DNA from: Rhizaria sp. SCN 62-66
Taxonomy: Eukaryota
Direction of reading: 5' to 3'
NCBI GenBank assembly: GCA_001724265.1
Contig: MEDY01000037.1
Coordinates: 62,001-117,979 of the forward strand
Length of the DNA: 55,979 nucleotides
The notes under the pieces were generated by a model. That model was not told where the DNA came from. It did no database searches and saw nothing but the letters and a program-made list of their open reading frames with translations. The position numbers were made by a program, and so were the translations under genes. Positions 3,001 through 43,503 of the stretch are shown in pieces (within the stretch, counting starts at the first letter, position 1; the number at the start of each line of letters is the position of its first letter).

Positions 3001-3126
3001 GCTGGGCAGCGTGCGCACACTGCGGCGAAGACGCGGCGACCGAGCCGGCAGTCACGGGCAGCTCGCCCGGGTAGAGCGAAATCCCAGCCGCGGCGGCCAG
3101 CGCAAAGGGGCCGCTGCGGTGGCGCA

Positions 3127-3157
<31 letters not shown>

Positions 3158-15100: not shown

Positions 15101-16354
15101 GCGCGCCACAGAGAGCGCCGGCGCGTCGGGCTGCGCGTCAGGCGGCGCGGCGGCCTGGAGCGCGGCGGCCAGCGCGCGCAGCAGCCCCGCGAGCCCAGTC
15201 ACGGCCACCTCCGCGCCCGCCGACGCGAGCGAAAGCACCTGCGTCTGCGTCTGCATCAACGGCGACGGTGCGGTGTCCGTGGTGGCCGTGACCGCGAGTC
15301 CGCGCAGGGCGACCGTGAGCGGCAGCGCGTCGATAGCCGCCAGCCCGCCCAGACTGGGGCTGAAGGACGGGGGCGCCAGCGCGAGGGCGAGGTGCTCGAC
15401 CGCGAGGGTGACAATCGTCGTGGAAGAAGCCGCCGCAGCCGCGTTGCCAAAGCGGCCGCCTGCCGGCACTGCGGAGGGAAGAACGACGCGCACGGTAGCG
15501 GCCGAGAGCGCGAGCAGCGGGGCGCACAGCAGCAGCAGCGCGCGCGCGGCGGGCACGGAGGCGGCCAGCGGCGAGAGCATCAGCGCGGTCTCCTCGCCGG
15601 CATGCGCGCGCTGCTGCACAAGCCACTCGGGCGGCAGCAGCGCCTGCGCGGCCGCCGCGGCCCACGAGGGCACGCGCAGCAGCGCCAGCGCGGGCGGGCC
15701 GCTGCGCGCGGGCTCGGCCGGCACTGTTGGCACTGATGGCGCTGCAGACGCAGATGCATCGGCGGCTCCCGCGGCGGCGGCGGCGGCGGCGTCGGCGGCG
15801 GAGCGCTGGGTGAGCGCGAGCGTAACTGTGAGCGTGGGGCTGTTGAGGGCGAGCACCCAGCCCCAGAAGCGGCCCGCCGCTGGAGCCGCCGTTGCCGTTG
15901 CAGAGCCTGCCGTTGCAGAGCCCGCCGCTGCCGCTGCTGGTGCTGCTGATGCAGGCACGGCCGTGGTCCCGAGGCTCAGACTAACTGCGCATGGCGCAGC
16001 GGCGGCGGTCGCGGAGGGAAAGCTGAGCGCAATCGTGGCAGAAAGCGCGGGCGATAGCGCGACCACGCGGGAGCCGTCAAGCAGGCGTAGGGCGGCGGGC
16101 ACAACGAGTCGCGGGACGAGCACGGAGGCTACGACGGCGGTCAGCGCGAGCCCCGCGAGGGCGAGCGCGGCCGCCAGGGAGACCGACACCGAGGCGGGCA
16201 GGAGCAGGCGCGCCGCGGCGACCCACAGCAGGCCGAGCGGGAGCAGCAGCGTCGCGAGCACACGCGCAGGCGAGCTGGACGCGCCGAGCGGGGCCGTAAG
16301 GCGCCCGGGACCGCCGTCAGCCGCGCTAGCCGGTGCAGTGGCGTGGGCAGGCAT
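2..16354 (-). CDS. BLTP2: Bridge-like lipid transfer protein family 2 (Hobbit/KIAA0100/Fmp27/SABRE-like), 3'-partial, >5,450 aa, apparently one exon
   Basis: Minus frame with codon high ends = 1 mod 3 reads cleanly wherever I translated it (16402, ~11200, ~9000, ~3700, ~2900, 2-60). The ORF track lists no stop-terminated ORF in this frame, consistent with it running off the edge. First ATG is at 16354, followed by a hydrophobic anchor (VLATLLLPLGLLWVAAARLLL...LAAALALAGLALTAVVASVLV). Family motifs: PTRVFHDLALQVHDAHIAHGPSV (~9250-9185) and PPSPPEIGFWDDLRAMLQGKLAMTATNCRLVLFSEPDAF (~8980-8865), resembling the Fmp27 GFWDK / SABRE WWDDMR / KIAA0100 WWDKSR region. Confidence 0.85.
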
Positions 16355-17677
16355 GGGGTCCCACAGTGCGGCAGGTGAAGCCGGAGATACGCCAAGTGGG
16401 CGCTAATTATACGTAGAACAACGATAAACAAGAAGAGATACAATCTAAATGCAAGTGTTGAACCAAGGGGCGCAACGCAAGGCGTGCGCGGTAAAGCAAG
16501 TCTGCGTAGAGAAATAAACAGGAGAAAATAGCATAAAACAGAGTCTTGTAATCATATGGGGCGCTGAAATTAAAATAAAGATGGATAACCCCTTATACAC
16601 CGCAAAAGATTGTGGCAGCACGATTCGCCACCTCACAGCAAGTCCATGCAAAGGATGAGAGGATTTCACAGTAATAACGCCGCTGTTGACTTAAATCAGC
16701 TTGATATTCCATGTAGATAGATAGTTTAAATCCTATAAACATAATGGTTGATCAGTTGTAAATGCGTGCTACGTGCCAACCGCATCTTTCTGACGCGCTC
16801 TGGCCTCAAATGTCCGCATAGGGTCAGGCGCGAAGCAAAAAATGGGTCCGGATATCGACAGTTGATCGACAGTTGCGGATTTAATTCAAGATACACAATT
16901 TCTATTCAAAATAAATTGTGGTTTTTCTTATTATTAATCTGGAATCTCTTGTTACAGCGTTGATATGCTGAATCTCACTCGATCGCCACTCAGCAAAGCG
17001 CTGTCATTTTTCGGTCCAGGGGAGGAATTTCGGTAATTTCGAGGAATATATTCAATCATAAGGCCTAAAATGAGTGAATTTGGATATTAAATAATAATTT
17101 AATTTCGGACAATCTGTAATTCCGCCTGATCCTTGTATATTTAGCGAGAAAATATTCCCAACGATGTGGAGAAAAGGCGGCGCGGTCAAATTTTTACATC
17201 TATCTTTTGATTAAATTTAGTTGGAGAAAATTGTTTTCTTGGAGTTAGCTAAACATTCTTCTCACCGACTTCAGAAAGAAAATCAGTATTTTCCTAAAAT
17301 CAAACTCAAAACTTAAAAATCAAATGACGCAGGGACCTCGAAGAAGAGGATATCGCGCGAAAGAAGAGACTCGGTTCGTGAAACGCCTTAAAGGAGCCGA
17401 AGAGGATGACGATTGAGTTCGTTTCGAATCGATCTTTAAGTCGCTTAATGATCGTGTGATGCGGATATTCAGCGCATAGACGGTTTTTTGTTATATTATT
17501 ATTTTGGTATACTTTTTAAAATTATTGAGATCGCATGAATTTAGACAGATCTACGCGTTTTCATGTTTGCTTGCATCACTCAGTTTGATCCCACGCCAAC
17601 GCCTGCATTTTTGACTACCCTCTCACTAATCACTCGATGATATATCATTTTTGCTTATTATATAACTACTATCCTAC

Positions 17678-19001
17678 ATGAAACGTACTATACATTGCAG
17701 CAACCCCGTCATGTCGCGTCTTCAGGCTGCACTGGTCCGCTCGCTTCAGGCCAAAGGGATTGTGAGCAGTCCGGCCGTGGCCCATGCGCTTAGCGCAATC
17801 GATCGCGTGCGCTATGTGCCTGTGGCGCTGCGCAACCAAGTTGATGTTGTATATCACGACGCTCCGCTTCCTATTGGCTATAGCGCGACCATTTCCGCGC
17901 CTCACATGCATGCCATGGTCCTCGAGGAGCTCTACCGTACGCCAAGATTCACATTGTTTACAACTCCATTTCGTACTCTGTTCATGTTCTGTTCGCTCCT
18001 AGATGTGTTGTCAATCGCATTCTTCATTGTGATTTACTGATATATTCCTTCTTTTTACATTCCAGCGTCCTTGTACCCCGGCTGCCGCGTGCTCGACGTG
18101 GGCGCGGGCTCGGGCTACCTGTGCTCTGCGCTCGCCGCTTTGATCGCGCCTACCGTTGTTGATGCGCTCACCGCGTCAACCGACACCGGCTTCGGCGCCT
18201 CCCCGGCCGAGGTTGAGGCCACGTTGCTCGCGCTTAGCCCCGCGGCCGGCGGCGCGGCGGCGGACGAAGCCAAGGCCCGCGCGGAGGCTCTGAAGCCCGC
18301 GCTGCGCGAGGAGCTGCGGCGCGAGCTGCGCGGCCGCGTCGTCGGCGTTGAACACATCGGAGAGCTGACCGACGCTGCCGCCGCCGCCGTTGCCGGAGAC
18401 CCCGTTGGCGGCGCGCTTGCGCGGCTTGGGCTCATTCAGCTGTACACCGCTGACGGACGCAAGGGTACGTGACACGTGTTGATACGCTGCTGAATGTCAA
18501 AAGTTCCTCACAACATGATATCTGACGATCACTACGAACAGGAGATCTGACAAGAGATCTGACAATAACTGTGAACACATCTTTTTCCCTCTCTTGTTTA
18601 TTTTTGTAGGTTATCCCGAGGAGGCGCCCTTCGCGGGCATCCACGTGGGCGCGGCGGCGGCGCCGGCGGTGCTGAGTACGCTGCGCGCACAGCTGCACCA
18701 GCCCGAGACGACGGCCGAGGGCGCCAAGCTCGCCGGCGGCACGCTGATGGTGCCCGTGGACCCGCACAGCACCAACGTGCTGCCGGAGCAGCGCGAGGAG
18801 AGCGCGCGGCTGCAGCGCCACGCTGCGGAGCGCGGCCACGACCACAGCCACGGCGCGCACGGCGGACAGCTGCTGGTGCGCGTGCAGCGCACTGGCGAGG
18901 ACAGCTTCAACCAGACCACGTTGTGCGCGGTGCGCTACGTGCCGCTCACGGACGAGCGGGCGCAGAAGGAGCACGCCACGCTTTGGGGCGGACGCTTCTA
19001 A
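17678..19001 (+). CDS. PCMT1: Protein-L-isoaspartate O-methyltransferase (PIMT); exons 17678-17936, 18066-18464, 18610-19001; 349 aa (alternative start 17711)
   Basis: Spliced product contains YHDAPLPIGYSATISAPHMHA, VLDVGAGSGYL (SAM motif I), VVGVEHI, DGRKGYPEEAPFAGIHVGAAA and VRYVPLT. Exon lengths sum to 1050 nt, in frame; stop is TAA. Confidence 0.95.
17937..18065 (+). other. Spliceosomal intron 1 of PCMT (129 nt, phase 1)
   Basis: GTACGC...pyrimidine tract...CAG; AT-rich; removal joins ELY-P-SLYPG in frame. Confidence 0.9.
18465..18609 (+). other. Spliceosomal intron 2 of PCMT (145 nt, phase 1)
   Basis: GTACGT...TTTTTGTAG; removal restores DGRK-G-YPEEAP. Confidence 0.9.
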
Positions 19002-19223
19002 GCAAGGCGCGCGCGCCGGACGATCAACATTTACACTCGCAACACAAAAAATATTGCGATGTCTTTGCTTTTCTACTACTACGTACTACTCACGAACAAC
19101 GTATGATCGACGCATTATTGATATTGATAATTGTTTCTGTATTGATTGAAATAAACAAGTTAAGCTAATGTAAAAATATCGAATCTCGTGTAAATATCAG
19201 TTGGACTTGTTGTTAGAACTCTC

Positions 19224-19769
19224 TTAGAACTCTCCGTTCACGTACTTTTGGTAAACAGCAGCGTCACTCACAAGCGTCACGCCGGCAATGGCGTCCATAC
19301 GCTTAGCAGACTCAAAATTAAGTCGCCAGGCCGCGGGCGTCAGCAGCCAGCCGTCGGCGTAGCGCGCGGCGTCGGCGACAGACTGCGCCAGCGGCCACTC
19401 AGAGCCGCCGCCGCCGTTGCTGGCCGAGAGGTAGAGGCGGCCGTGGGGCTCGTCCGCCGCGTTGCGCGCACTCGCCAGACCCGCGTCGACCGCGCTCGTC
19501 GGCGATCCGCCTGCAGCTGCGCCCGCGCCCGTCGTGGCGCCCTTGGCACCGCCAGCGCGGCGCATGCGGCGCACCCACGCCAGGCCGAGGGCCGCGCCCA
19601 CCGCGCCCGTCGAGTCGCGGAGCCGCGCCAGCGCAGCCGCGCCCTCCGCGGCCGCGGCCGCGTCGGCGCCCACACCGCCGGAACCAGCGCCCAGCGACGC
19701 GGCGACGGCGGCAGCGGCGGCGCGCTTGGCTGCGGCGGCCGCGCGGAGGTGGCGCCGAATCGCGGCGTC
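19224..19769 (-). CDS. In-frame 181-codon continuation of the FIG4 ORF beyond an internal TAG (putative true C-terminus)
   Basis: Same frame as FIG4 with no further stop until TAA. Same GC/Ala-rich coding composition. Ends ...SDAAVYQKYVNGEF*. The switch to AT-rich DNA occurs around this TAA, not at the TAG. Confidence 0.65.
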   Translation of the reverse strand, partial: DAAIRRHLRAAAAAKRAAAAAVAASLGAGSGGVGADAAAAAEGAAALARLRDSTGAVGAALGLAWVRRMRRAGGAKGATTGAGAAAGGSPTSAVDAGLASARNAADEPHGRLYLSASNGGGGSEWPLAQSVADAARYADGWLLTPAAWRLNFESAKRMDAIAGVTLVSDAAVYQKYVNGEF

Positions 19770-22700
19770 CTAGGCCACTGTCGCCGCAGTTGCAGCAGCA
19801 GCAGCAGCGGCAGCTGCGCGCGCTGCGGCCGGGTTCGGTGCAGCGGCGCCCGCGGCAGCTGCAGCGGCGGCGACGGCGGCGGCGTTGGAGGATGCCGAGG
19901 ACGACAACGCGGGGTTGAGCGTGAGCGGGGGGATGAAGGAGCCGACGGCGCGCGAGCTGATGCTGCTGCCCGGAGCTGCCAAGGAGCCGACGCCGCAGAG
20001 CGAGTTGGTGCGCGAGCGCTGCAGCTGCAACGGGGGCATATATCCCGAAAGCGGCGAGCCCAGCGCGGGCGACCCCGCGAGCGGCGTACCCAGCGGCGGC
20101 GTGCCGCCCGACGGGTGCGACATCAGCAGCGGCGACATGCCCGGCTGCGGCGATTCGCGCCCGCTGCCGCCGCCCAAGGACGACGTCAGCGGCCACGGGA
20201 TCTGCGCGGGGAAGCCACGCCCGCCGCCTGCGCGCGGAGACGCCATCGGAGACCCGCGCGGCGTGCCCGCCATAGCGTCCAGCGTCAGCGCGCTGGAAAC
20301 GCCCGCAGCGGAGCCACGGCGCGCAGATGCAGACAGGGCGCCGCTGCCGGAGCGGCTCAGAGACGGCGCAGGGCTGCTCCTACCGTCAGGCTGGCTGCTG
20401 GTTGCAGCCGCAGTGGCCGCAGCGGCGGCAGCGGCAGCGGCGATCTGATGCGCAGGCGGGAAAAGAGTGGGGTAGCCGAAGGGCGCGGCGGGAATCTCGG
20501 TGAGCAGACTCACATGCGGCGCAGGCGGCGCCTGCAGCGGCACAGTCACAGTGTGCGTGCTGCTAAAGCTGTGGCCCCACGCAACGGCGACTGCGCCAGC
20601 GACCGGCGCCGCGGCGGAGGACGCGGCCGAAGCGCCGTGGGAGAGCGCGAGCGGCAGGCCCGTGCCCAGCTGCGGCAAGGCCGCGGGCGCGCACGCGCCT
20701 TGCAGGATCGAGGCGACGGATTCAGCAATCATCAGCGACGTTGAGGCAGCAGCCGCGGCAGTTGCAGCTGCAGCAGCGGCCGCGGGGGTAGACATGACGG
20801 CCGACGACGACGTCGTGGAGCCGTTCAGTGCGCTCGCGGCGGCCGAGGAAGCAGCTTCTGCTGCCGCGGCCGCGGCGGGCGCAAAGGGCGCCAGAAGCTT
20901 GGCGTGGTAGAAAACAGAAGGCAGCGTGCCGCTGACGAGGCCCTGCGAGAGCTCGTAGCGCAGCGACGACGGCGCGAGCAAGCCACCAGCGATCATGTTG
21001 GCCGAGTCCGCGCGCAGCCGGTGGCGCAGCGCCGTCACGGACGAGCCCACGACCGCGGCGCCCGAGGGCGGCGGCAGCATCACAGCCACAGTCGCCGTGG
21101 CGGTTGCGACCAGCGAAGCGAGACTCCGCAAGGCAGAGGGACGGTGACCGGTGTACAGCGATGCCGTCTGCATGGTGCCGACCGACGCCAGTCCGGGGAA
21201 CAGCGCCAGCGGGTCGCCCGCCAGGGACGAGGCGGACCGCGCGGCCGCGGCTTCAGCTGCAGCTGCAACGGCGCCAATGGCAGCCACGATGGCGGATTGC
21301 ACGGGCGACACAGCGGTCTTAGGTTGCTCTGTCGGCGTCGACTCGCCGTCGTCGTCCACGTACTCCCAGTCACTAGCGTCACTGTCCTCAACCGCCACAT
21401 CATCCACGCACAGCCGCGCTGGCGCAGCCGCACTTGTTGCCGGGTTCGGCTTGGTGACAACACCTTTCACGAGGCGTAGTAGTGTCGCATCAACGCCCAA
21501 GGTTGCAAAATCGAGCCGCCGGAGCGCATGTGGTAACCCAGCCAGATTGAACACAGGTGCACGCCGCAACGCGCCGCACGCAAGCGTCGCTGACAGCGCA
21601 GCACCAGACACACTTTGTGTCAGCGCAACAGCGTCTGCGTGAGCCGAGGTATCGTCCAGAGTGGCGTTCAGCAAGTCAGACGAGGTGGTCGTGAAGCCGT
21701 AAAGGCGCGAAAGAAGCACCATCTCGCTGCGCATGAGCTCGCGCGTCGCAACAGCATCAACCGAGGCCGCCATGGTGGCAGAAATGTCGACAGAGGAGCC
21801 GGGCACGACGTGGCGCGCGCCGCCACGGCCAACATAGCTATACGAGCTAAAGTCAGCGGCGGATGCAGCCGAGAGCGCAAGCAGCGAAGCTGTGTGGATG
21901 GCATCAGCCGCGGTGCCCAAAATCCAGCCTGAGCCAGGGCCCGTGGCAGCAGGGAGCGCGGGCAGCGGCGCCAGGCGCTGGCGGGGCGCGGGCACGAGCG
22001 TGCGCACCGGATCCGCGGGCATCATGGCGATCGCGGCGGCAATAGCCGCCGAGGCAGAACGCATCTGCGGCGTGAGCCAGGGCCGCGTGACGTCTTCATT
22101 CATGACCTGTTGCTGCAACTGCATAGTTTGTGTCGTTTGCGGCGACGGCTGCGCGGGCGACTGCATGGAGGAAAAGGCGGCACCTGAGCCGACATGCTGA
22201 AGCGAAAAGGTCGGAGACGCGACAGCTGACGGGTTCGGGCTCTCAATCACGAGCGCAGACGCGGCGGCGTCAGCGACGACGGCGGGCGTTTGTGCCTGCA
22301 TTGCCAATGCCAGAGCGACAGGCAGTGAGAAGGCCGGCAGCCCAGTCGCCGCGGTCGCGTTAAGCGGGAAATCCGCAGGTGCCGTTAACGCGCGCACGAC
22401 TTGCGTGCGCGGGGACTCTGGCGCCTTCTTCATGGCCTTCGGCTGCTTCTCCACAGCAGCAGCAGCAGCAGTGGCCACTGTGAGTGCCGTAACGGGAACC
22501 TCGCTGTGCGCGGGTTGCGCAACAGAAGGCGGGAAGCAACTTTCATCAGCATCGCCGGTCTTGGCTTCGCCCGTATAGTCATCATCATCGCTCGAGTCGC
22601 GGTAGTTGTCCCAAGCCGGAATCGGAGTGAGCTGTGAGAGACACAGGCGGCGACCAAGCGCGGCCGTGTTGCGTAGAGGCAGCGCGGCGCGGTCCTTAGG

Positions 22701-25700
22701 GACAGCGACCTTCTCGGCCGCAGCAGCGGCAACGGAAGGAAAGAAAACGGTCGTAGGCGGCGGCGCCAACAAAGCAGGCGCGGGGTCAATAGTCATATCA
22801 TTCCACACCAGTGGCACCGGCACGTGCGCTGCAGCAGGCGCGGGAAGAGGCACATCTGACAAAGTAAGTGCAGACGCAATCGACGAAGAGTAGCACGGCG
22901 GAAGGACAAACTCTACACCAGACGGCTTCATCTGGCTCCCCGGTAGCGGCGCAAGATCGCCTTCGATCTCACTCGCACTACCGTCGTTTTCGTCGCTGTT
23001 TGCAGGCATGTGCGGCGCAGTGCTTCCGCCAGGCACGTCAGCACCGTCGCGCGCACGCGCGCGAAGCGCCTTCGCAACGCCGGTGCAAGGGAAAAGCGAG
23101 ACATAGGCCGCGCGCGCGACGCCCTGGCCCGCAGCAGCAGCAGAAGTGGCGGACGCGGATGCGTAGACGGATACAGCCGCGTCGATGTTTCCGCTGGCAA
23201 GTGCAGTCGCAACAGGCAGTGTCGTCAGGGAGGCGCCGCGCGGGAGTAGTGCACGAGCGCTGGCGGCCACGGCGTCCGGATCAGCGTCTTTGGCGGCGCG
23301 CCTGCGCTTGTTGCCGAGGCGCCGGCTCTTCACAGCACCAGCGGGCCCGGGCCGTCCGAACACGGCTGCGGCCGGAGCTGTCGGGGCGGACACTCCAGCA
23401 AGCGCTGCAAGCGCCTGTGGGGGCACGAGCGCAGGCAGCGCGGCCGCGGGTCCGCGGTACACAACGGCACCAGCAGTGGCCGAGACGTTGCTGAGTCGTT
23501 CCGCGGGCAGCGCCAACGCGAAGAGGTGCGCGGACGCGGCGACAGTGGGGCAGGCGCGGCTAACTGGCGTCGGAGCAACGACTGGAACATCAGACACCTT
23601 CTTGTTGGCGCCGTCCACAGGAGCGATAAACTGATCAAGAGCGCGCGTGATTGTGCGCGTGGCAAGAGTCTCAATGCCACATCCGCTGCGGCAGTCCTCA
23701 GGCACGAGGAAAGGACCCACACCAGAGCCCGTCTGCACCGGCGCCGCGGTGGCAAGCACAGAAGCACTCGTCACACCAAACGCGCGTGGGCTCCGTCCTG
23801 CGGAATAGCCGGGCATAGACTCTCCGTCTGACGATCCTGACATAGATGCTGCAGCAGCGGCAGCAGCGCCACTCGCGGTGGTCATGCGACCGTTGTGCAG
23901 AGCGTAGCTCGGGACTACAAGAGAGCGCGAAGGCTGGATGTGTCCATAGTAGGTCAGCGGACGAGAGTCGCGCAATGACGACTTGCGCACTGAGCAGGTG
24001 CAAGGGGCATTAGCAGCGGGCTTAGTCTCGGGGCGAATCGGCTTTGCACTGAGAGATGCAAAGTGCGACACAGCATCCTTGCCAGCAAGGCACTTACCCT
24101 CGCGCTTGCGCGGCGCATCACCCAAAGCCATGTCACCGGTCAACGCGAGAGTAAGATCGACAATCGAGTCTGATCCGTCGATAGGGCCAGTGCCATTGCG
24201 CGCGCCATCAATATTGAAGCCTTCGCCGATGCCGCCAAATGGTGACGGGCGTTGCTGCATCAACGGCAGAGCAGCCGGCAACGAACGCGAGGACGCAATA
24301 CCGCACCCACAGCGCGCACAGCCGGCAACGACAGGCTTTGTGCGTGCAGGCGCCATCCAGAGCGTGTCGCCGCCAAGGCCCAGCGCGCCAACGGAAGCCC
24401 CTGCAGGCCCGGTGGCGGCAAGCACCGAGAGAGTTGCGTGCGTTAGCGTGGCGCGGTAAGCCGCCGCTAAAGCCGTCGCCGATGCTCGTCCATTCAAGCG
24501 CTGCCTTGCGTGTGCAGCGGCGGCGTGCGCAAGCAGCACCGGATGAGCGGGCTCCGAGCACAGCGCCGCGAGCGCCGACACAATGCGCAGCGGCAGTGGC
24601 TGGGGGAGAAGCGACTTTCCGGCAAGCGCGGTCTGGACGCTGAACTTGTGCATCGCGCTCGCTAGAACGTTGTTGATGGCGGCAATAGCAGGGGTCTGCA
24701 GACGGCCCATTGCCGCACTGGTGGCCGTTACTGTGGCAGCAGACGGGCGCAGATAGGAGGACGGAAGCACCGACAGCGACAAATGACCTGAGGCAGAGGC
24801 GGCCATGCGCGGCAGCGCAGCCGACAGCGTCAGGTATTGTGAGAGGTAGCCTGTGAGCGTGAGCAGCGTGATCAAAGATGGAAGCTGGAAAGCACGCTTC
24901 TCACATTGGGCAACGCGATGATTGCGAGCTCCAGCCTTTGCTGTGGCGCGGCGGCGGCGCAACGCGCGGCTTTGCTTCTCGGCGTAGAGCCAATTGTTGC
25001 CAAGAGAAGCTTCCGAAGCGCGCTCACCGACCCACTGTCCGTAACCGCTCCAGCCGGCGGCGGCGCCGGGGGTGTTGGTGTGCGATGCAGCGTCGAGCCG
25101 CAGCCCCCATCCCGCAACGGCGTCCGCCGCTGCAGTAGCCGAGGGCAGCAGTGCCGCGTGCAGCGGCGCGACGTGCGGGACCGACGGCGGGAACGTTACC
25201 AGGCTCACCGTCATCGCGTTGGCAAGCTCGGAGTCAGCGGCGACGGTGAGAGCGGATGTCACAGTCGCGGGCCACACCAGCGTCGGCAGCGTCGTCGCCG
25301 TATCGGTCAGCACAGGCGTGGCCTTGGACGCTACGTGACGCAACACGTAGCCGCCTGACGAGGGTGTGACCGTGGAGACGGCCGTCGCAAGCGCGGCGTC
25401 TGCAGCGCCTTGGCGCGGCGGCGGCACGGACATGAGCGCACGCGCGGCGGCCACAGAAGCGGCAAACGTTGACGCAGCCGCGGCAGCCGCAGACGGCAGA
25501 CCCGCGCCTGCCGCGGATATAGCAGAAGGAGTCAGCGCGACCTGTGAGTAGTCACCCGAGGACGCGGTCGCTGCAGCTGCAGCAGCCACAGCAACGGCGG
25601 AGGTTGCCGCTGCAGCCGCGCTCGCGGAGCCCTGGCCGTTGGCGGCGGGGTCGGCGACGAGTGCTGAAGCGGATGACGACTGCGGGAGCGGCGGCGCAAG

Positions 25701-28700
25701 GTAGTGCGACAGCAGCTCTGTCGGTGAGGCGACCGCAAAGTCGGAGCATGCCGCGAGGGGCGTTGGTGAGCAGCTAGTGAGCATCTTCGAGGCGCGCTTG
25801 ACTGGCGACGCGAAGAGCAGCGACAAGATGCGCGACGAGTCCTCAAGCCCAGGCGCCGCAGTGGACGTGCCACCCACCGGCCAGGTGTGGGCAAAGTAAC
25901 GGAGTGAAGGCGGGAGCGTGATTTGAGCAGCGATCATGAGACGCGCGTCGGTGAAAATCGCCGTGTTCGCAGCCAGAACAGGCGCCAGCGCAGCAACTGC
26001 GGCAGTGAAGGCTGATCCACTGAGCGAGGGCGCACGGCCGTGCAACAGCGCAGCAGCTGCAACAGAAGCGGCCGGCGACGCCAGGTGGAAGCGTCCCACC
26101 GCCGCAGCGGCAGTCATCGCGGGCATCACAAGCAGAGCCATGCGCTGCGCGCGCTGCTCGCCGCCCGCAGCCGTCGCCGCGGCAGCAAAGGCAGCCTCGC
26201 GGTGCGCATGCAGCAGCGCCTGCTGGCCGCGCCGCAGCTGGTTCTGGTGCTGCTGCATGCGGCGCAGCTGCGTCCACGCGGCGTCGGCGCTGGGACCCGT
26301 GTGGCCCCACGCAGCGGCCGCGGCGTCGCCGGCAGTCAGCGGCATGACGAGCCCGTCGCCCGCGTCGGCGTCCCCGGCGCACTGCGGGCGCCCGCCGTCG
26401 GCCAGCGCGGGGAACGCAACGGAGAAGCACTGCATCAGAGGCTCAGCGGGCGGCGCGTCCAGCGGACGACTGGCGTTGCGCCGCAGGTCGATCGCAGCGG
26501 CAGTCGCGGTCGCCGCTTCCGCCGTTTGCGCGGCCGCGAGCAGCAGCAGCGCGGGGGCCAGCGCGCCAGCTCCGGGCCGGCCCGCGCTGGACGACGCGGC
26601 CACCGAGGCTGCAGCGCCCGCGGGGGCGGTCGTAGACGAAAGGAAGGCGGCGCTGGGTGACGAGTGCGCGCGCGCTGCGCGGGTGATGAGCGCGGCAGCG
26701 TGCGCCGACAGCGCGTTCAGACCAGGAACGTACGCGGTCTGCAGTGTCGGCGACGTCGCCAGCAGTGCGGGAGGTGGCGGCGGCGGTGCCTGGCACGCAG
26801 CAGGAGAAAATCGGTCACCGTGAAAGGTGCGCACACGGCCTGACTTCGCAGCGGACGCGCACGATCGTTGAGGCAGCACTGTGGGCCGCTGAAGCACCAT
26901 CGAGGCCAGGTGGGGCGCAGTCGTCGCGATTGCAGCTGCGGCGGCACGCGCGGATGCGAGAGTGCGCACGGCATCGCGCGACACAACGACCGCGGACGAC
27001 GCACCAGCGGGCGCGGTCGCAGTAGAGGCGAAGGAGCCTGCGGGCGGAAACGCGCGCGTTGCCTCTGGCAGCGCGCAAGCTAAGTCGGCCACAGGCGCGT
27101 TGGTCGCAGCCAAGTAGTGGCTATGCGCGGCAGCAGCAGCGGCAGCAAGAGGCGCATGCGTGATAGGCAGCGGCAGCATCGCGTCACCAGCACCGGCGGC
27201 GCGCCCAGCGGCGAGCAGAGCGGGCAGCGGCAGCGAGGGAAGCGCGCGGTGCAGCGGTGCAGTGGCGGCATTCGACGAGTAATACAACCGCTGCTGCGGT
27301 GCAGAGCTGTGCGCGGACGAAGAGCTCGTCGTGGTTGTTGAGAAAACGGCTGAGCTGCTGCCGTAGCCGTCGGCGTGGTTGTCGACGGCCGAGTCGTTGT
27401 CGGCGTCGTCATCAATCGCGGCGTCATCCAACGCGCGCGCACGCTTTGCGGCCGTCGCCGCGGCGGCAGCGGCATCAGCCGCAGTCACCGCGGCGCCAGC
27501 CATCGCGGCGACAACGAGTGCGACAGATTCGGAGCTAATGCCCACGCCCTGCGGAGCGAGCAGCTCGCCGGCCTTTCGGCCGCCAGTAGAGGGAAAGGCG
27601 CCCGCGCCCGCGGCAGAGAGAGCGGCGGCAGTCATCGCGGCGGCGTCGCCCAGCGCGAGCGAGTGCAGCCCCGGCATGTCGGATGAGCCCCACGCGAGCG
27701 GGTCCTCGCCCGACTCGGCCGCGGCGGCGTCGACCGCGGAGTCCGCATCAGCCGCGCCCAGCGCCTGCGACGGCGGCCGCACGACGCCCAGCGTGAGCGC
27801 CAGCGACAGCGGCGGCGTGCGCCACACGGCGCTCATCGCAGGCGCCGAGGCCGCACCGGCCACGCCGTACACGGGGACGGGCCGCGTGTGCGCGTACGGG
27901 TCGCCCACAGCGAAGCGCGCCAGAGTTGCGGCCGTGTCGAGCTGCGGCGCGAGCGGCAAGAACAGCGCCGCGGCGTGGCCCTGCGTTGCGGAGATAGGGT
28001 TGGCCGCGCTCGTGGGGATAGGCGAGCTGGCGGAGCTGCTAGAAGTGAAGCCAAGCGTGGCCGCAATCTGGGCGCCTGTGCCTGCGACGCTTGATGTGGC
28101 CGCAGAGGCAGCCTTCTGCAGGAAGGAGGCAACGGTAGTAGCAGCAGCGGCGGACGAGGTTGAGAGCGCGAGGAGGGACGACGGCACCGCGTTGTCGCCT
28201 GAATCTCTCCCAGTGCCGCCGTTGTGCGCGCCGCCCGCAGCAGAAACGGAGTTCGACCACACAGATGAGGCCGCGGCGGCGGCAGGGAAAAGCGCAGGCG
28301 CAATGATGTCAAGATAGGTCTTCGACGCGCCGCCGGTGGTCGCGTAGCCGAGACCAGAGGGCGGTGACAGCGCCGACACAAGAGTGGGAATGGGCTGGTG
28401 CATCCACATGCTCGTCACGGCAGCTGCCGCGTTCGCGTCTTCGTCGTCGCCGCCTCGTTCGTCCTCATCGCGGAAAAATCCCGCGAGCCCGTGTGCAACG
28501 CCGGCGCTGGGGGGCAGTCCGCGACTGAGCCCGAGCGTGTCGCGCACCACAGCGCGTAGGGCCGCAGTCGAGGTGAGCGACACGCCTGCGCACGCGCCCA
28601 CGCCGCTGGGGGCAAAGCTCGAGCGCGTTGCGTACATCAGCGCCGTGGGCGTGGCCTTCTGCATCGCGGTCGCCGCGCTGATCGCAACGGCGGCGGCGTC

Positions 28701-31700
28701 GGCGGCCACAGAGTCCGCCGGGTCTGGCAGCCACAGCGGCGCCACGGCCGAGGTAATCGCCGCGCTCTGCAGCGTCGCCGTCAACCTTTCGGGCCGAGGC
28801 ACTGCCGCGGCACCGCGGCGACCCGGCAGCGCCGAGGTTGCGAGGAGCAGCGGCACGCCCGTGGCGGCTGATAGCGGCGCAACCGTAGCGGCCAGCATCG
28901 CCTCGCGGTTGCGCGCGCGCTCCACGCTGTCGGCATCGCTCGTCGGCGTCAGCGCCGGAACCGAAGTGGGGAGCGTGCGCACGAGCGCGATGCGCGCGCA
29001 CGCAACGCCGACGGGCGTGAGCCCCACGAGCGACAGCGTGGAGCCAGCAGTGGCGGCAACGTCGATGAGCGCGGGAGCAGTCGGCACGTAGTACGGCGAC
29101 GGCGCCAGCGGATTCAAATGGCGGCCGCCCCAGCAGTCGGCAGCGGTGGCCGCAGCGGCGGCAGCAGCTGCAGCCGCGGGCGTGGGCACAGGCGCGTTGA
29201 TAGCGCGCGAGAGCAGCGCAGTGACAGCTGTCGCCAGCCCCGCAGGCGTGGGATCGTAGTGCGCGGGCGGCGTGTTGTCGTAGTGTTGACTGCCCATTGT
29301 GTCTGAAGTCGCTGATGCAGCTGCCAGCGCCGCCGCAGTAAATGCCGTCAGCGCACCAGGCCCCGTTGTCGACGCTGCAGCGGCCGCAGCAAGCTGGTGC
29401 GCTTGCGCCAGCGAGTTCGCCGCGGCGGGATCGAGGCACAGCACTGGGTTCGCGCGCAACAGCACCTTCGTCATATGACTGCTGTTGTTGCTTTCACGCA
29501 CCGTGAGAGAAGCGCGCTTGCCCGCAGCGGCGGTCGCCCACTGTTCCTCCCATGCGGTAACGGCAGCCGCGGGCGCGTCGCGCAGGTGACTATGCGCAAG
29601 CCGCTGCAACGCGTAGAACGGGATGACAGTCAGCTCAGACAACGCAGCACCGGTGGGGCCAAAGCCCGCGTGCACGGAGTCGGAGGAGAAAGTGAGCAGA
29701 GGCTGCGGCGCAGCGTTACCTTGCATCGAACCAGCGGGGCCGGCGGCAGCTGCCGCAGCGGCGACGTCCTGCGCGTCGCGAACAGTCGACGCAAGGCCGC
29801 CAATGACCTTGGCCGCGGCGGCAGCGGGGATCGTGACCTCAAGGTCAAGCCGCATGCCCGACACCGGCACGCCGACAGCGTGCGCGCCTGCGGGCAGAGG
29901 CACGAGCCCAGCGACTGAAACATACTCCTTGCCCATCTGCGTCGCCCCAGCGCCGGCGTGGGCCGAAGCAAGCTGCGCGTGCGCACCGTCGAAATGGTCC
30001 TGCTGCATCTGGCCCTGCGGCTGCTGCGACAGCAGCGTCTCGTGGGGGTGCGGGAAGTTGTCCAGCCCAGCGGTGGGCGCGGTCCGCCGCAGCGTGGGTG
30101 CGCCGCCGGGCGCCCCGGCAACCAGAAGTGCGTCGCCCGACATTCCCGCAAAGCGGCGCGCCGCGCTCTGCACGGCTGTCGCTGAGGGCGGAGTCGCGGC
30201 TGAGGCCATGATGGTCGTGCCGGCGGCCGCGTCAGCGTCGGCCAAGGCGACTGCCTCGCGCCAGAGACTGCCGCCGGCAACGGCGCCGGTGCCCGCGTCG
30301 TAAACCATCGCAGGGGCGGCTGGGGGCGCCTGCACGCGCTGGCACGCGTCAAAGCGCAGCTCCGCCGCCGGCGCGGCCGAGAGTACTGCTGCGGCGGCGC
30401 CGGGGACTGTGCGGTGCGTGTGCAGCCCGACGACTGTGGTGGGCGGCGGCGCGGTGGCGCCCGCAAAGGTGAGCGTGACGCCGCTGAGCTCCACCACGAC
30501 TGACTGCGACGGAGGCATCGACACGCCCGGGGGCAGCCTGCGTGCAGGCCCCTTGGCCGCGTCCACCGGCGCCGAGTCGGGCTCAAAAGCCAGTGCGTGG
30601 TGCGGCGGCAGACGGAAGGCGCCGATGCCCGTCGGCATCGCGGTCGAGACTTCAACGCGCCGTGCACTGCGCTTGCCCGCGGCAGCGGCGCCAACACGCG
30701 GCGCAACCAGCGGCAGCGCGGCCGGAGCCACGGGAGCTACGCGTTCTGTCACTGTCACCGCTTTACCCTTGCCCTTCTTGCCACTACTCGAGTCGCTCGC
30801 TACAGTCACAGATTTGACGTGACAGGAGGAGTCCTTGGAGCCGTTCGCAGCGACGGGCGAGTGCGTGATCGTGAGGAACCCCTCGCCGGCGGCGGGAGCG
30901 TCGGGCGCGGCGCTAATGTCAACGCCGAGCCCTGTGACGGGCGGCGGCGCAAAGCCCAGCGCGGCGACAGGGCCGAGCGGTCCGAGATACGCCTTGGTCG
31001 TGCGCTCATATGCAACTTGCTTGCGCGAGTACAGCGCCAGCCCGCCGCCGCCGTTGCCACTGCTGCCGGCGCCCGCAGCTGCCGCAGCCGCCGCGGCTGC
31101 TGCTGCGCCGCCCTGCGAGCCCGTCGAGGCGTGCGCAGCTGAGGCTGAGGCGGCCGCAACAGCAACGGACACGCCGCCGCGCGCGTCAAACTGCGCAGAG
31201 GCGGGACCCATCGGTGTTACAACAACGGCGTCGCCCGAGTCGCCGGTCGCGGCGCTCAGCGCGCCCGCAGCGTGCATCGGCGCAAGCGTCGAGTCGCAGC
31301 CGCCGTCGACCTCGACGGCCGCGCTGTAGCTGAACCCACCCGTGAAGGCGGCGCCGCCCATAGCTGCAGCCGCCAGCGGTGCGGCCGTTGAAGGCGCGGA
31401 CGTGATGACGGTCACGGCCTTGCCCGTCGCATTGGGCGCCAGCACGTCGTCGAAACGCGTCACCAACAATGTGCCGCTCTCCGCCAGTCGGTTCGCGCGC
31501 AGCAGCGAGCCCGCCGTGGGCGCCGGCAGCGGGGGTGCGCGCACGAGTGCGCTGACGCGCGCCGCGGCCTCCGCGGGCCCCGGCAGCGAGGCCACGGAGC
31601 GCGGCGCAAGACCCATGACGAGCGGCACAAACGGAAGGCGCAGCTCCGAGGCCGCGAGCGGGAGCGTGTACCACGAGTCGTCGTCATAGACGGGCGCGCC

Positions 31701-34700
31701 CAGCTCCCAGCCCGCTTCACGCGCGCCCACGCGTTCGGCCGCGGGCAGCGAGTGGTGGCACGTGAGGTCTGTCGCCAGCTCCCACACCGCGGGCGTCGTC
31801 AGGAACAGCCATGTGACCGTGGGCGTCACCGCCACCGCCGCTGAGGGGCCCAGCGCACCCGCGTTCGTCGCTGGCACAAGCGCCAGCGCGGGCGCCGTGG
31901 CCGCGGCCGTTGCCAGCGCCGCCTCGACCTCGTCCTCAGTCGCCAACGCGGCTGCGGAGCTCGGCTCGACAATCTCCAGCGTGCCAGGGTTCGCGCCAGC
32001 GCCGACCATGCTCAGCGTCACGGACGACGACGACGCCGGCGCCGTGGGCGCACCGGAGGGCGGACTCAGCTGCGCGAGCGCTCTGCTGCCCGCGCTGGCT
32101 CCGGACTCACGGCGCATGCGCGCGGAGGGACTGTCGCTGAGCGAGCCCATCGCCGCAACAACGGGCGAGCCGTTGAGGGTGGAGTCCGCGCGGCTGAGCA
32201 GAGAGCGGCGCCGGCCAGCGGGCGACCACAGCGCGGCGTTTTCAGCAGCCGCAGTGACTGCGGCAGCAACAACTGCGGCTGCAGCAGCGGCGAGACGGCC
32301 GCCAAGCGGGAGCGCAAAGCCGACCTGCGTGTGGCCAGCGTAGGGAGTGGGCACGCACGCGCCCAAGTAGAGGTTCATGCTATCCTGCTTCTCGCGGTCC
32401 TGAAACGAGTTCTGGTAGTGGCGCACAAGCGACACGTACAGCTCCTTGGGCTTGGACATGGACTGCTGCGCCTGGGAGCGGTACAGCACAGGCGCCATCG
32501 TGACCGTCTTCTTGCCGTCGCGCTTCATCTGGCGGTGCATCTGCGAGCCACCGTACTGGAGGGCGATGGCGTCGCCGAGCCGCTCGTAGAGGCCCAGGAA
32601 CGCGAGCAGCATGTCGCCGCCGTCGTCGGTCGGGTGCAGCGACGTGGCCAGGCCCAGCGCGGCGAGCTGCATGCTCAGTGCGCACTTGCCGACGCAGAAC
32701 TGCGACACGTTGGTGCGGTCCAGCGAGTCGATGCAGTTGGAGCGGATGATGCCGCGCTGCACGAAGCCGACGTCGGTGCGTCCGCCCGCCCGGGCCGCGG
32801 CGCGCGCAAGCGTGCCCGCGTCAGGCGTGATGCCCGCCGTGGCCGCGGGCGTGGGCTGCGCGAGCACGGCCGCCGCAGAGGGGTGCGAGTGGAAGAAGCC
32901 AGTGGTGAGCAGCGACCACTGCGAGATGAGCGCCAGCTCGTCCATCACGCTCACGTCGGCCGAGCGCACGACCTGCTTGTAGTCAAGCCGCAGGTAGCGC
33001 AGCGCAAGCGGCGGCGGCAAATTCGCGTTGACGGTCTCGACGGCGTCGGCGAAGAGGTCGCCCAGCACGCCCTCGCGCGGCCGCCGCTCATTCTGCTTGA
33101 TCAGGTTCAGCGCCATCACGGGCGCGCCGTAGCGCGCAAAGAGCCCGGAGACGGTGCGGCGCGTGGGCACAGCCACAGGGTCGACGGAGCGCACCGTGAC
33201 GTCGGGCTTGGCCACAATCGCGTTGGCTTCCTGCGTCCATAGCAGCGGAATCGACGCGCGCAGCTGCACGTGCGACGTGAACTGGCCCTCGGTCGGGTGG
33301 CCGCCCTCGCGCGTCCACAACACCTGCTCCACCTCGACCTCGTTCGCCGTGTCACCGAGGTCGTTGGAGCCGCGCTTCTTGTAGCGCGTGCCCGCAAAGC
33401 GCGCCGAGCGCCGCGCCACGAGCAGACACGTCACGGTGCGTCCGCGCACGGAGAAAGTGAGCTGCTCGACGAAGCCGTGCAGAAGAGGCGTGAACCACCG
33501 CTGCAGCGCTGCGTCCGCGCGGAAACCGCAGCGGCACGCGCACGACACGCCCGTGTACGTGCAAACGCACGGACACTGGCCCAGCGCGCAGGGCGAGCCC
33601 GCGAGTGGCGCGGGCACGTCGCCGTCGTCGCGCGGCGCGGCCCGCGGCGCCGGCGCGGGTTGGCCGAGGTCGCGCGCGACGAGTGCGTCGAGCGCGCGCT
33701 CCCACTGCAGCAGGCTCCAGAGCCCGTCGCCGCAGCCGTCCGCGTCGCAGGCGCCGGCACTCTCGCCGTCGCCGGTGCAGCAGTCTGGCGCGAGCGGCGG
33801 GAGCCCCACGAGCGCGCGCGCGGCTTCGAGCGCGTCCGCGCCCGCGGTCGCGACGGCGCGGTCGCCGTGCACCCACGGCCGCGCGCGCATCGGCCCGCGC
33901 GCGTGCGAAGGAGACAGCCGCACGATCGGCGCGGCCGCCGTGCCGGGCGTCGCGAACGCGCCCGCGTCGGCCACCACGCCGCAGCCCGCACTGCTACTGC
34001 GACAGCGCGCGGCAGAGAGAGCGCCGGCCGCGGTAGCAGCGTTGCGCGCGGAGGCCACGCGGTGCGCGGCGCGCAGCAGGCCCCAGGCGTCAAGGCGCGC
34101 GCCGGTGATGCCGCTGCCGGCGACCGCGGCGGCAACGGCGGCGGCGGGCAGCGGCGGCGCGACGCCATAGTCGGAGCCGCTGCCGTAGCCGAAGGCGCTG
34201 GGCGGCAGCGGCGGCAGGTTCGCAGCTGCGCGCGCGGCGGCGTCGTCAGAGTCTGCGGCAAACGACGCCGCGGGCTCATTCTCCGCGGCGGCAAGCGTCG
34301 CGGGCAGGAAGAGCGCGGACGCCACGCCCAGGTCGTCGATGTGCCGCGACAGCCGCTGCGCCAACGCCCACGCGCGCCGCGCGCCCGCGCAAGGACACCC
34401 GCCCAGCGCGCGCGCAGCGATCGCGTCCGCGGGCCGCGCAGAGTCGCTGTCGTGTGCGGCAGCGCCGCAGCACGCGCCACCGGAGCAGTCTTTGCGCGCG
34501 CTAGCGCCCGAGTTCGAGCTTTCGCTTTCGTGACCATGAGCGTCCGCGTCTGCCGCAGCAGGAGGCGCGGGCCCCGCGGGGTGCGGGTAAACCCAGTCTG
34601 CGTGCTTATCAGCATTCGTGACATTGGCGTCGGCGGCGTCAGACGGGAGGTGCGCGGCGGCGGCGCGCAGCAGGTGCGCGTTCCACACGAATGTCATCTG

Positions 34701-34977
34701 CGGCCGCATCGCAACGTACGCACACTCCGCACTGGCACTGGCAATAGCGTTGGTAGAAGTGCTGGCGGTGCGCGTGCGCGCCTGCTGCTCGGTGGAGTGC
34801 GCCACGACAGTCTGCAGCGCCTGCGAGAGAGGGTACGTGTAGCTCCAGTATCCCCAGGAGCGCTCCAGGTCCGAGCCCGCGACGGCCGCTAGACAGCGCG
34901 ACTCGAGCGCCTGCAGCGCCGCGGGGCGGAACACCGGCGGCGCACGCGGCCGCGCGCTCTCTTCTTCGCCGCCGCTG

Positions 34978-35019
<42 letters not shown>

Positions 35020-36035
35020 GTGTCAGCGGCGGTGGCGGTGGCAGAGGCAGGGGTAGAAGCAGTGGTAGCGGCGCTGCCGACCGGGGGCGCGCCAGCGACG
35101 GCGGCGGACGCAGTGCCGGGTGGCGTCACAGTGGGGACTCCAGCGTAGCCGCTGGAGGCGTTCGCCAGCTTGGGCGAGGAGTTCGCAGCGGACGCCGGAG
35201 TCGCAGTCATTGCCGCTGTCGCCGCCGGCGTTGCTCCCGAGGCGGCCACCGCGGCCGCAGGCGCGGTTGTGGCGGGGACGGGCACGTGCAGGGGCGCGAG
35301 CGCAGGCGGCGGCGGCGCGAGGAGCTGGTCCGTCACGGCCGCGGGGCTCCACAGCTCGACGAAGGCTGTTTGCGAGGCGCGCCACAGCTCATGCTGGCCG
35401 CCGACCATCGCCACGGCGCGCCCCGCGGTCACGATGTGCAGGTAGTAGCCGTAGTAGAAGCGCACAAAACCCAGCAGCGCAACACCCTCGGCCGCCAGCG
35501 TCGCCCCGCCGCGCGCGCGCCGCCAGACTTGCAGCAGCGCCTCGGCCTCGGCTGCGGAGTAAACTGCGGGGTCTTGAGTGAGGGGCAGCGCGTCGAGCCG
35601 CGCGGGGAAGCGCCCCACGCGCAGCACGCGGTGTGCCGTGCGTGCGGCGTTAGCGCCGACGATGTAGACCGTCGCCTCGGTCGTGTACACGCTGAAGCGC
35701 ACCAGCGGGTCCGTCGCCGCGCCCGGCGCGGGGAACGGCGGCAGCAGATAGCCCTCAGTCGGCTGCGTCAGGCGCTGCAGCGGGGAGAAGAACGAGGGCT
35801 TCGGCTCAAACACCGAGGATCGCGACGCCGTGGTGCGGTCCAGGAAGCGCTGCAGCGCGGGAGTCGTCGCCGCCGCGGTCGCTGGCGAGGCCGAGGCGGC
35901 CGACGCGGTCGGCGTCGCCGCGGGCATTGGCCCGCGGGCGAGGCTCTCCGGCGCGGCGACATGCGCCTCAGAGCTTTGAGACACAGCAGAGTGCAGGCGT
36001 GCCGGAGACGGCAGGCTGTTTAGTGACGCCTGCAT
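19770..36035 (-). CDS. FIG4: FIG4/Sac3-type polyphosphoinositide phosphatase, giant single exon (5,421 aa from ATG 36035 to TAG 19772-19770; ~5,603 aa if read through to TAA 19226-19224)
   Basis: FIG4-type N-terminus FSVYTTEATVYIVGANAARTAHRVLRVGR and LLGFVRFYYGYYLHIVT; FVWNAHLL; WFTPLLHGFVEQ; ARRSARFAGTRYKKRGSNDLGDTANEVEVEQV; FTSHVQLRASIPLLWTQ; CX5RT loop SNCIDSLDRTNVSQF (32735-32712); GDAIALQYGGSQMH; HYQNSFQDREKQDSMNLYLG. The ORF-track start at 36332 is a non-ATG codon in AT-richer DNA. Confidence 0.92.
34981..35010. repeat. (GCA)10 microsatellite encoding poly-Ala in FIG4
   Basis: gcagcagcag cagcagcagc agcagcagca read directly. Confidence 0.9.
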
Positions 36036-40030: not shown

Positions 40031-40519
40031 CCTTTGCAGGCAAGAGGGGGGAAAGGGCGATGAAAAAGTGGCGCATTCGAAACAAATAAACATGGTTGAG
40101 CGGTGCTATAATAAGATGGAAGAATAGAGCGAGATTTATATTTAGAACAAATATCGGCTTTATTATATGACGACGGAGAGTTTCAGTATTATCGCTCAAA
40201 GTTTTCCGCTTTTCGGCGCCAAAAGACTAAAAGGATTACTTCGACCGCTGGCAACCCAACGGCCACACGCTCGCCTTTGAATGTGGACCTTCTTATCCCC
40301 TGCCTGTGTGCATCATTCTGATCGTCTATGGAGATATAAAGGATATTTATATAATTAAACTTGACGTTCTATAAAATTTTACGAGTAAATATTTCACTGT
40401 TGTGCAGACTGGAGTAGTATACGCACCATTAAAATATTTGGTCTAACCTGTTGCTGTTTAACACAACGTTCTTGTATTTTTTCTCCCTTGCCTTGCTTGT
40501 TTTGTCCCTCTTAGTTCCC

Positions 40520-42786: not shown

Positions 42787-43503
42787 GCGCATTTTTGCCG
42801 CAAACACTGTTACATCTATGCGCACTCACTGCTATCACGGTGACGATGCGCGCGCGCAACATAAACGCTTTCGCGTGGTGTGAGCGCACCGGGCCACCTC
42901 AGCAGCGCAAGTAAACGCGAGCGAGGAGTTGCGCGAACAATTATCTGTATCAAAGAAGGTTATGCAAACACGTTCTTTGTCAGTGCATGATTCATGATCC
43001 TTTTTATTGCTGGATATCGACATAAAATACACTCATCAAAGTTTCTGCATGTTACGTTCGTTTCAAAAGTGGCGATATTCTGACTATGATAAGACGCAAC
43101 AAGTTTTAATGAGAACATCATTTTAGTTTGATGATAAATTATTGCAATCAACACAGTTTGAATCAAGGTCAGAGTTGTTATCAACATACTATCACCTAAA
43201 AACATCGCGAGTTCCAGTCATTTTTGTGTTCGTGGTTGACAAAAGGCTGGCGGCACCTTAGAGAACTCGCGAACGCCGAGCAAGCGCAAACAGACAACGG
43301 TGGCTCAGCACATCCGTTATTCTAAATTTATCAGTAATTTATGAGATTAAACGTAATAGTTAAATATGAATGTTATTCTAAATGTCATTCATTTGACCAA
43401 ATCATATCATATCAACGATTTTCCTTCCGCTCTTTCGCCTCTCTGCAGCCCCCACCTTTTACTTTGACAAACTGCCTTCAAGGAAGGATAAACGAGCAAG
43501 CAG

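Follow-up and report, generated by a model that had tools for sequence, protein, structure and literature searches.

An in-frame TAG ahead of the conserved C-terminal tail of a giant FIG4-type gene: a possible recent nonsense mutation in a GC-rich protist

Introduction

Programmed UAG read-through is exemplified by the tobamoviruses, which use the context UAG-CAR-YYA, and by gag-pol of murine leukaemia virus (MuLV), in which the UAG is combined with a pseudoknot; leaky contexts include UAG-CAR-YYA and a C at position +4. FIG4 is a phosphatidylinositol 3,5-bisphosphate (PI(3,5)P2) 5-phosphatase that acts in a complex with Vac14 and Fab1 (PMC9293831, in excerpt). In certain protists UAG has become a sense codon: it is read as leucine in the rhizarian exLh, which carries 384 in-frame UAGs in 71 genes, and as glutamine in Iotanema, and UAG-reassigned protists have several in-frame UAGs per gene (PMC5304391, in excerpt). 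Here we analysed a stretch of 55,979 nucleotides (nt) from Rhizaria sp. SCN 62-66 (contig MEDY01000037.1, positions 62,001 to 117,979; hereafter the window), in which a FIG4-like gene on the minus strand is interrupted by an in-frame TAG. An earlier examination of the letters (the sequence-only reading) had noticed this TAG and proposed that the conserved FIG4 C-terminus lies beyond it. We find that the TAG is genuine and that the original gene end lies downstream of it. The TAG may well act as a premature stop that arose by a recent nonsense mutation.

Results

A giant FIG4-type gene with an in-frame TAG

The FIG4-like gene occupies a stop-to-stop frame of 5543 codons on the minus strand (36401-19773), which is closed by a TAG at 19772-19770. 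The minus-strand letters around this stop read GCG ACA GTG GCC TAG GAC GCC GCG ATT, which places the TAG in the context GCC TAG G. Past the TAG the frame remains open for another 181 codons (19227..19769) with the tail ...SDAAVYQKYVNGEF, until a TAA is reached at 19226-19224, just as the sequence-only reading had described it. The main open reading frame (ORF; 19773..36035) extends from the first ATG (36035-36033), the putative start, to the codon preceding the TAG and comprises 5421 codons. It is rich in alanine and has no AT-rich intron; between 19261 and 36131 no AT-rich island was found.

The translated ORF contains a SAC phosphoinositide phosphatase domain (Syja_N, Pfam PF02383; 32334..35705, minus strand), which was matched with an E-value of 2.3e-51 and 175 bits at a cutoff of 27 and is split by long low-complexity insertions. 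A regular-expression (regex) search of the translation located the catalytic CX5R(T/S) motif as CIDSLDRT (32712..32735, minus strand). The closest solved structure is that of Fig4 (PDB chain 7k1w_F, E 2.4e-69), while Sac1 reached only 6.9e-19 and 2.4e-18. The best named matches of the SAC core, at 36-39% identity, are called 'phosphatidylinositol-3,5-bisphosphate 5-phosphatase' and 'polyphosphoinositide phosphatase', i.e. FIG4 orthologues, and its nearest relatives are unnamed metagenomic proteins at about 50% identity. By similarity rather than by a tree, the gene is a FIG4-type SAC phosphatase, for which activity on PI(3,5)P2 is predicted. Three unnamed metagenomic proteins with 48-50% identity in the SAC core (P0005, P0010 and P0012) possess PH domains as well (PF00169, PF15413), a SAC+PH architecture that the window protein does not have. 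The approximately 4000 residues outside the SAC domain are Ala-rich and matched no Pfam family, and a homologue search with a query of 900 residues returned three proteins only, with low-complexity words dominating.

The TAG in independent DNA assemblies

We compared the contigs (not the reads) of four public runs, X1 to X4, with the window over positions 17500-22000. In X1, which may be the source of the window, a single 19-kb contig with a depth of 33.5 spans the whole stretch with zero differences. In X2, another sample of the same study, a contig of 1187 nt (19274-20460, depth 6.1) also shows zero differences, such that the TAG is identical in both. X2 and X3 are filed under different studies and years. 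Their contigs over the locus are identical in length and depth, and they were therefore taken as one data set and counted once. Alternative letters at 19770-19772 were not listed in any of the contigs.

Public gene calls on Logan and ENA assemblies include, on five contigs, an ORF of 149 residues that starts at the first GTG past the TAG. Four contigs, the longest measuring 248 kb, carry the form identical to the window (P0077), and a contig of 6.8 kb carries a variant differing in one residue (P0002, G>V). Since a gene caller would not start there in a frame that is open upstream, the stop can be inferred for those assemblies too. We counted two data sets and the ENA variant contig as independent support for the TAG. 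In public collections the tail already exists as a separate 149-residue 'protein', split off by prokaryote-style gene callers. Two scans of metagenome contigs for a related locus found nothing.

An alanine-codon repeat, (GCT/GCA)n, of 23 nt lies 20 nt upstream of the TAG (19792..19814, minus strand). Contigs from other metagenome loci accumulate at this repeat, which is seen as a depth spike and loose ends, and RNA contigs break there. This pile-up of foreign contigs close to the TAG would be a ground for suspecting a sequencing or assembly error in place of a sense codon. With 23 nt, however, the repeat is shorter than the 31-letter words of the contig index, and the letters agree between the contigs compared. 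The TAG is thus a genuine base triplet, and a base-call or assembly error is unlikely.

The original gene end lies beyond the TAG

The base composition changes at the TAA and not at the TAG. Over the 200 nt past the TAG the GC content is 0.84, compared with 0.32-0.55 past six other ORF-ending stops. An AT-rich island begins at about 19260, in agreement with the sequence-only reading, and over the 200 nt past the TAA (19224..19226) the GC content is 0.32. The TAA, sitting at this GC-to-AT transition, is likely the original stop.

The open frame and its codon usage were evaluated in addition. The other two frames of the extension contain 4 and 5 stops. Within the main ORF there are 97 and 112 off-frame stops per 5543 codons (1.75-2.0% per codon), from which we calculated a chance of about 0.03 that 181 codons stay open when unconstrained. 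With a codon table trained on the long ORFs of the window, the same frame scored best of six across the extension (-3.576 vs -3.661 nats per codon), with a margin similar to that over the 543 nt upstream of the TAG (-3.607 vs -3.669 nats per codon). Among 65 stops in all six frames that have at least 100 open codons on either side, the own frame was best on both sides in two cases, the FIG4 TAG and a TGA within an AT-rich intron of a neighbouring gene; the TAG is the window's sole in-frame stop with a coding context. The GC content of third codon positions alone did not separate the frames, with Ala codons dominating.

To define the C-terminal tail of the family we ran an unsupervised Gibbs search on the C-terminal 30 residues of 72 homologues from the FIG4 family. 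It returned a terminal motif, roughly [DE]-x-[YF]-x-x-[YFW]-[VILC], in 26 of the 72 tails; this definition is self-derived from the homologues and not a curated family feature. Written as [DE]-x-x-hydrophobic-[YF]-x-x-[YFW]-[VILC], and usually located 1-11 residues from the end, the motif recurs in animal, fungal, plant and protist FIG4-family proteins, with extra copies upstream in human and insect FIG4. In the extension a position-specific scoring matrix (PSSM) and the regex identified it as DAAVYQKYV (19239..19265, minus strand), four residues ahead of the stop. Among 90,697 six-frame positions the segment AVYQKYVNG ranked 5th, and among 18,333 positions close to ORF ends it ranked 3rd. Its score was 6.5 nats, with a higher leave-one-out median of 8.3 for the family members. 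The motif regex matched 2 places in 97,681 residues.

An alignment of the last 45 residues using hhalign provided a second comparison, for which the template consisted of 21 tails handpicked from the 72 for visibly carrying the motif. The extension aligned over 37 columns (19236..19346) with a probability of 88% and a P-value of 3.1e-6. It scored 25.5; 200 shuffles of these 45 residues reached at most 11.1 and the last 45 residues of the 648 other ORFs in the window at most 14.6, which puts the extension first of 649. In the human Fig4 chain 7k1w_F (918 residues) the sequence ...KEDSSMYREYI ends at residue 913 and thus five residues short of the C-terminus. The human ending quoted by the sequence-only reading is thereby confirmed, and its placement of the conserved C-terminus beyond the stop is supported. 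The ORF ending at the TAG, in contrast, finishes in poly-Ala (...AATAATVA) without the family motif; a family tail is found only beyond the TAG.

Standard searches did not recover this similarity. Pfam assigned no family to the 181-residue extension at E up to 1, and no Pfam model covers the terminal motif in the window protein. A phmmer search of the extension against PDB sequences gave nothing at E up to 10, Fig4 included, and from 1.84 billion representatives a phmmer search with the last 100 residues retrieved only P0002, which is near-identical, and two repeat proteins judged to be chance matches. A hidden Markov model (HMM) of 75-residue tails from six related homologues reached the extension only at E 11 (rank 16), and a 16-column HMM iterated on the 72 tails only at E 18. 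The tail match therefore rests on the ungapped PSSM and on hhalign against the 21 chosen tails.

Based on composition, openness, codon usage and tail homology the original C-terminus is located at 19227, and the extension is, or recently was, coding. For annotation, the gene model should reach 19224 with the TAG flagged, instead of stopping at 19770. The terminal motif provides a handy marker for the completeness of FIG4 gene models across kingdoms.

Context of the TAG and UAG usage in the window

A G follows the TAG, and the same base follows the stop at three of the five verified gene ends. For the 133 nt from the TAG on, a fold without pseudoknots had a minimum free energy of -85.2 kcal/mol, no better than that of shuffles (mean -83.5 kcal/mol, z -0.42). 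Given the UAG-G context and this fold, the site looks like an ordinary terminator.

Six long ORFs with a total of 15,322 codons contain one TAG, no TAA and no TGA in frame, in line with the single TAG seen by the sequence-only reading. From the position-specific base composition about 126 TAGs would be expected if the codon were unconstrained. The same model predicts 136 TAC (173 observed) and 139 TGG (153 observed). The rarest sense codon tallied, ATA, occurs 4 times, and TAG is rarer still. In-frame UAG is thus avoided, and the counts reject a common reassignment of UAG, against which the sequence-only reading had argued as well. On the question of the genetic code, the window offers no backing for a new code.

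The verified gene ends are TAA for a putative protein-L-isoaspartate methyltransferase (PCMT), TGA for an aspartyl protease, TAA for the gene at 43492-48075, TGA for an acetyl-CoA transporter and TGA for a Tubby-like gene. Six other genes had originally been listed as ending in TAA or TGA. Five of these ends were confirmed, but the sixth, a TGA at 41960-41962, is probably intronic, since a GTACG donor precedes it at 41887. When the TAA of the FIG4-like gene is included, TAG is used at none of six gene ends, which is not significant. The tRNA with a CUA anticodon that the sequence-only reading had suggested to look for was not found; the search covered the window only and returned no tRNA of any kind there. 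An Rfam search of the window returned no family.

For the SAC core and for the acetyl-CoA transporter (at about 32-36% identity), most named best matches are stramenopile proteins, a weak indication that the organism may have a stramenopile affinity. We know of no UAG recoding in stramenopiles, though no search aimed at it was made.

Introns and RNA coverage

Six introns are recognisable in the window. All have GTACG donors (17937, 18465, 41503, 41887 and 42501 on the plus strand, 48547 on the minus strand), a length of about 120-150 nt and 36-44% GC. They sit in exons of 66-80% GC, such that a very uniform 5' splice site goes along with a sharp contrast in composition. GTACG as such occurs in the window at chance frequency (75 observed, 78 expected). 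Between 19773 and 19793 there is none, and the DNA around the TAG has 84% GC. The only upstream GTACG close by (20085-20089) lies within an RNA contig of X4 (contig 28, 19794-20262) that runs across it without a break. An intron over the TAG is unlikely, given that AT-richness and a GTACG donor are common to all six introns seen.

The last codons of the extension, AAG TAC GTG A (19238-19245, minus strand), spell GTACGTGA. Intron 2 of the neighbouring gene has the same eight bases at its donor site. Past the copy in the extension comes AT-rich DNA, where an acceptor is possible near 19137. Splicing at the copy in the extension would replace the conserved ...YV tail, and the match was therefore taken as chance.

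X4 is a polyA RNA run, in which organism-like contigs were found at 19341-19599 and 19794-20262. RNA, which the earlier examination had asked for at the site, thus covers DNA on either side of the TAG, but no organism-like X4 contig bridges 19600-19793, which includes the TAG. Many contig 'joints' with sides of 18-25 letters inside GCN repeats were read as other loci. The X4 strain differs from the window at 2 positions in 259 nt of the extension (A>T and G>S) and at 2 positions in about 980 nt of upstream ORF pieces (within 19794-22000), which change amino acids as well. All four differences affect first codon positions and exchange Ala, Thr, Ser, Gly and Cys among each other; they are too few for a test of relaxed constraint.

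Neighbouring genes

The GC content in the window is 66-78% for coding DNA and 31-44% for introns and intergenic DNA. The convergent neighbour of the FIG4-like gene (17679..19001, plus strand) is the putative PCMT, identified by eye from its translation; it has two AT-rich GTACG introns and served as reference for introns and stop codons. A multi-exon gene on the plus strand (40433-42786) with three GTACG introns and a TGA end at 42784-42786 putatively encodes a Tubby-like C-terminal domain, recognised by eye from ...FGRxxxDxFTMDFxxPLxxFQAFxICxSSxDxKLACE; Pfam on its first exon gave no match. The neighbouring minus-strand genes at 2-16402 and 19224-36035 each exceed 5400 residues, are mostly Ala-rich and of low complexity, and have no AT-rich introns. 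For the gene at 2-16402, which runs off the window, no Pfam family was found in the 4000 residues scanned, with 2-4402 outside the scan.

Discussion

With about even confidence we propose that the TAG acts as a premature stop brought about by a recent nonsense mutation. A single-base substitution would have hit a giant intronless FIG4-type gene 181 codons (3%) ahead of its original TAA. Most ribosomes would then terminate at the TAG and release, as the main product, a protein of about 5421 residues (counting from the first ATG) without the final 181 residues, among them the conserved FIG4-family tail. The 546 nt that follow would be ex-coding sequence that now serves as an unusually GC-rich 3' untranslated region (UTR). 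Full-length protein would be made only by ordinary low-level near-cognate decoding of the UAG. The mutation would be recent, since the frame is still open and GC content, codon usage and tail motif are likewise intact, although intact frame, composition and motif would equally follow if the extension were still translated.

Several points weigh against a recent nonsense mutation. The intact frame of 181 codons and the perfect family motif are predicted equally well by functional read-through. The TAG is common to at least two slightly different haplotypes (P0002 and the window) and is therefore not a private mutation of one sample. Contigs drop minority alleles, such that a wild-type allele may be present in the same population. 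A GC-rich 3' UTR is found at no other gene of the window. Finally, losing a tail motif that is conserved in animals, plants and protists might be costly, which would favour some retained production of the full-length form.

The alternative that survives best, which we consider a real though rather unlikely possibility, is functional (programmed) read-through. Here a useful fraction of the ribosomes would decode the UAG with a near-cognate tRNA, giving a short and a full-length, FIG4-tailed isoform. Such read-through would explain why the frame is open (P about 0.03 by chance), why coding-like codon usage carries on past the TAG, why the conserved tail motif stands exactly at the end of the frame and why the TAG is common to the assemblies and the variant haplotype; elsewhere in the genome GC-richness is confined to coding DNA. 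The extension is also present in the polyA RNA of X4, though this is expected of any 3' UTR. The context UAG-GAC, however, is unlike these leaky contexts (UAG-CAR-YYA, or C at +4), and no stimulatory fold was found downstream (z -0.42). Neither the 1.84 billion representatives nor the metagenome contigs yielded a relative on which conservation of stop and extension could be judged, only near-identical haplotypes being available. The few variants seen within the extension (A>T and G>S in X4, G>V in P0002) are all amino-acid changing, as are the two upstream. Nonsense allele and read-through, both proposed by the sequence-only reading, thus still stand, but context and fold gave no positive signal for read-through.

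A stronger claim would be that selection keeps the TAG as a read-through or context-dependent stop, by which a GC-rich protist makes tail-less and full-length FIG4. We regard this as somewhat more doubtful still. If true, FIG4, a core lipid phosphatase of the endolysosomal system, would be governed by a cellular UAG read-through switch outside any known leaky context, and the full-length form alone would bear the terminal motif conserved from animals to plants. Demonstrated read-through would provide a clean cellular case in a little-studied lineage. The event belongs to a familiar class, premature stops or possibly read-through stops, and only a demonstration of translation beyond the TAG would lift its interest above modest.

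It is improbable that the TAG is removed from the mRNA by an unconventional GC-rich intron or changed by RNA editing. Splicing from a GT (GTGGCC) that lies six bases ahead of the TAG to an AG 45 bases behind it would take out 54 nt and keep the frame, and the stretch 19600-19793 is not bridged by RNA contigs. Against this, all six recognised introns share the GTACG donor, the length of about 120-150 nt and the GC content of 36-44%, whereas the surroundings of the TAG have 84% GC with no GTACG in 19773-19793, and the GTACG at 20085-20089 is left unspliced in the X4 RNA.

Even less probable is that UAG is a rare sense codon of the lineage, reassigned or ambiguous and context-dependent, in which case the gene would be uninterrupted. 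Protists with a UAG-only reassignment are known, and the sequence-only reading had cited leucine in a rhizarian and glutamine in Iotanema correctly (PMC5304391, in excerpt). In the window no gene end uses TAG, including that of the FIG4-like gene if it ends at the TAA, but with six ends this is not significant. A single TAG was seen where about 126 would be expected of an unconstrained codon, and TAG is rarer than every sense codon tallied. ExLh, by comparison, has 384 in-frame UAGs in 71 genes, and the window contains no tRNA of any kind.

A sequencing or assembly error at a true sense codon, also among the options raised at the outset, deserves hardly any weight despite the nearby GCN repeat, as the letters are the same at depths of 33.5 (X1) and 6.1 (X2) and the ORF just past the TAG is called on five contigs. 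Just as implausible is an original stop at the TAG, followed by an extension that has never been coding. DNA with 70-84% GC does have long open frames in all frames, and four sequence searches with the extension gave no FIG4 relative, but the first rank among 649 ORF tails largely refutes this reading, barring an artefact of the choice of 21 tails, and the ORF up to the TAG ends in poly-Ala without family motif, with the GC-to-AT boundary at the TAA rather than at the TAG.

Compared with FIG4/Sac3 proteins (human FIG4, yeast Fig4 and the plant SAC1-5 group), the window protein shares the SAC domain, the CX5R(T/S) motif and the tail motif near the end. It is, however, about six times longer (approximately 5600 vs 900 residues), matches no family over thousands of low-complexity, Ala-rich residues, and its tail is cut off from the body by the in-frame TAG. 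With programmed UAG read-through the locus has in common an in-frame UAG that is followed by a long open frame with a functional-looking C-terminal part, but in contrast to the tobamovirus and MuLV cases it has neither a known leaky hexanucleotide nor an exceptional downstream structure. In-frame UAG and gene ends of the TAA/TGA type are also features of exLh (UAG=Leu) and Iotanema spirale (UAG=Gln), yet exLh carries 384 UAGs in 71 genes compared with a single TAG in 15,322 codons here (PMC5304391, in excerpt). Natural nonsense variants near the 3' ends of long genes resemble the locus in the single in-frame stop, the intact ex-coding DNA downstream and the ordinary context. The window stop differs from them in that it is common to several assemblies and a variant haplotype and removes a conserved terminal motif.

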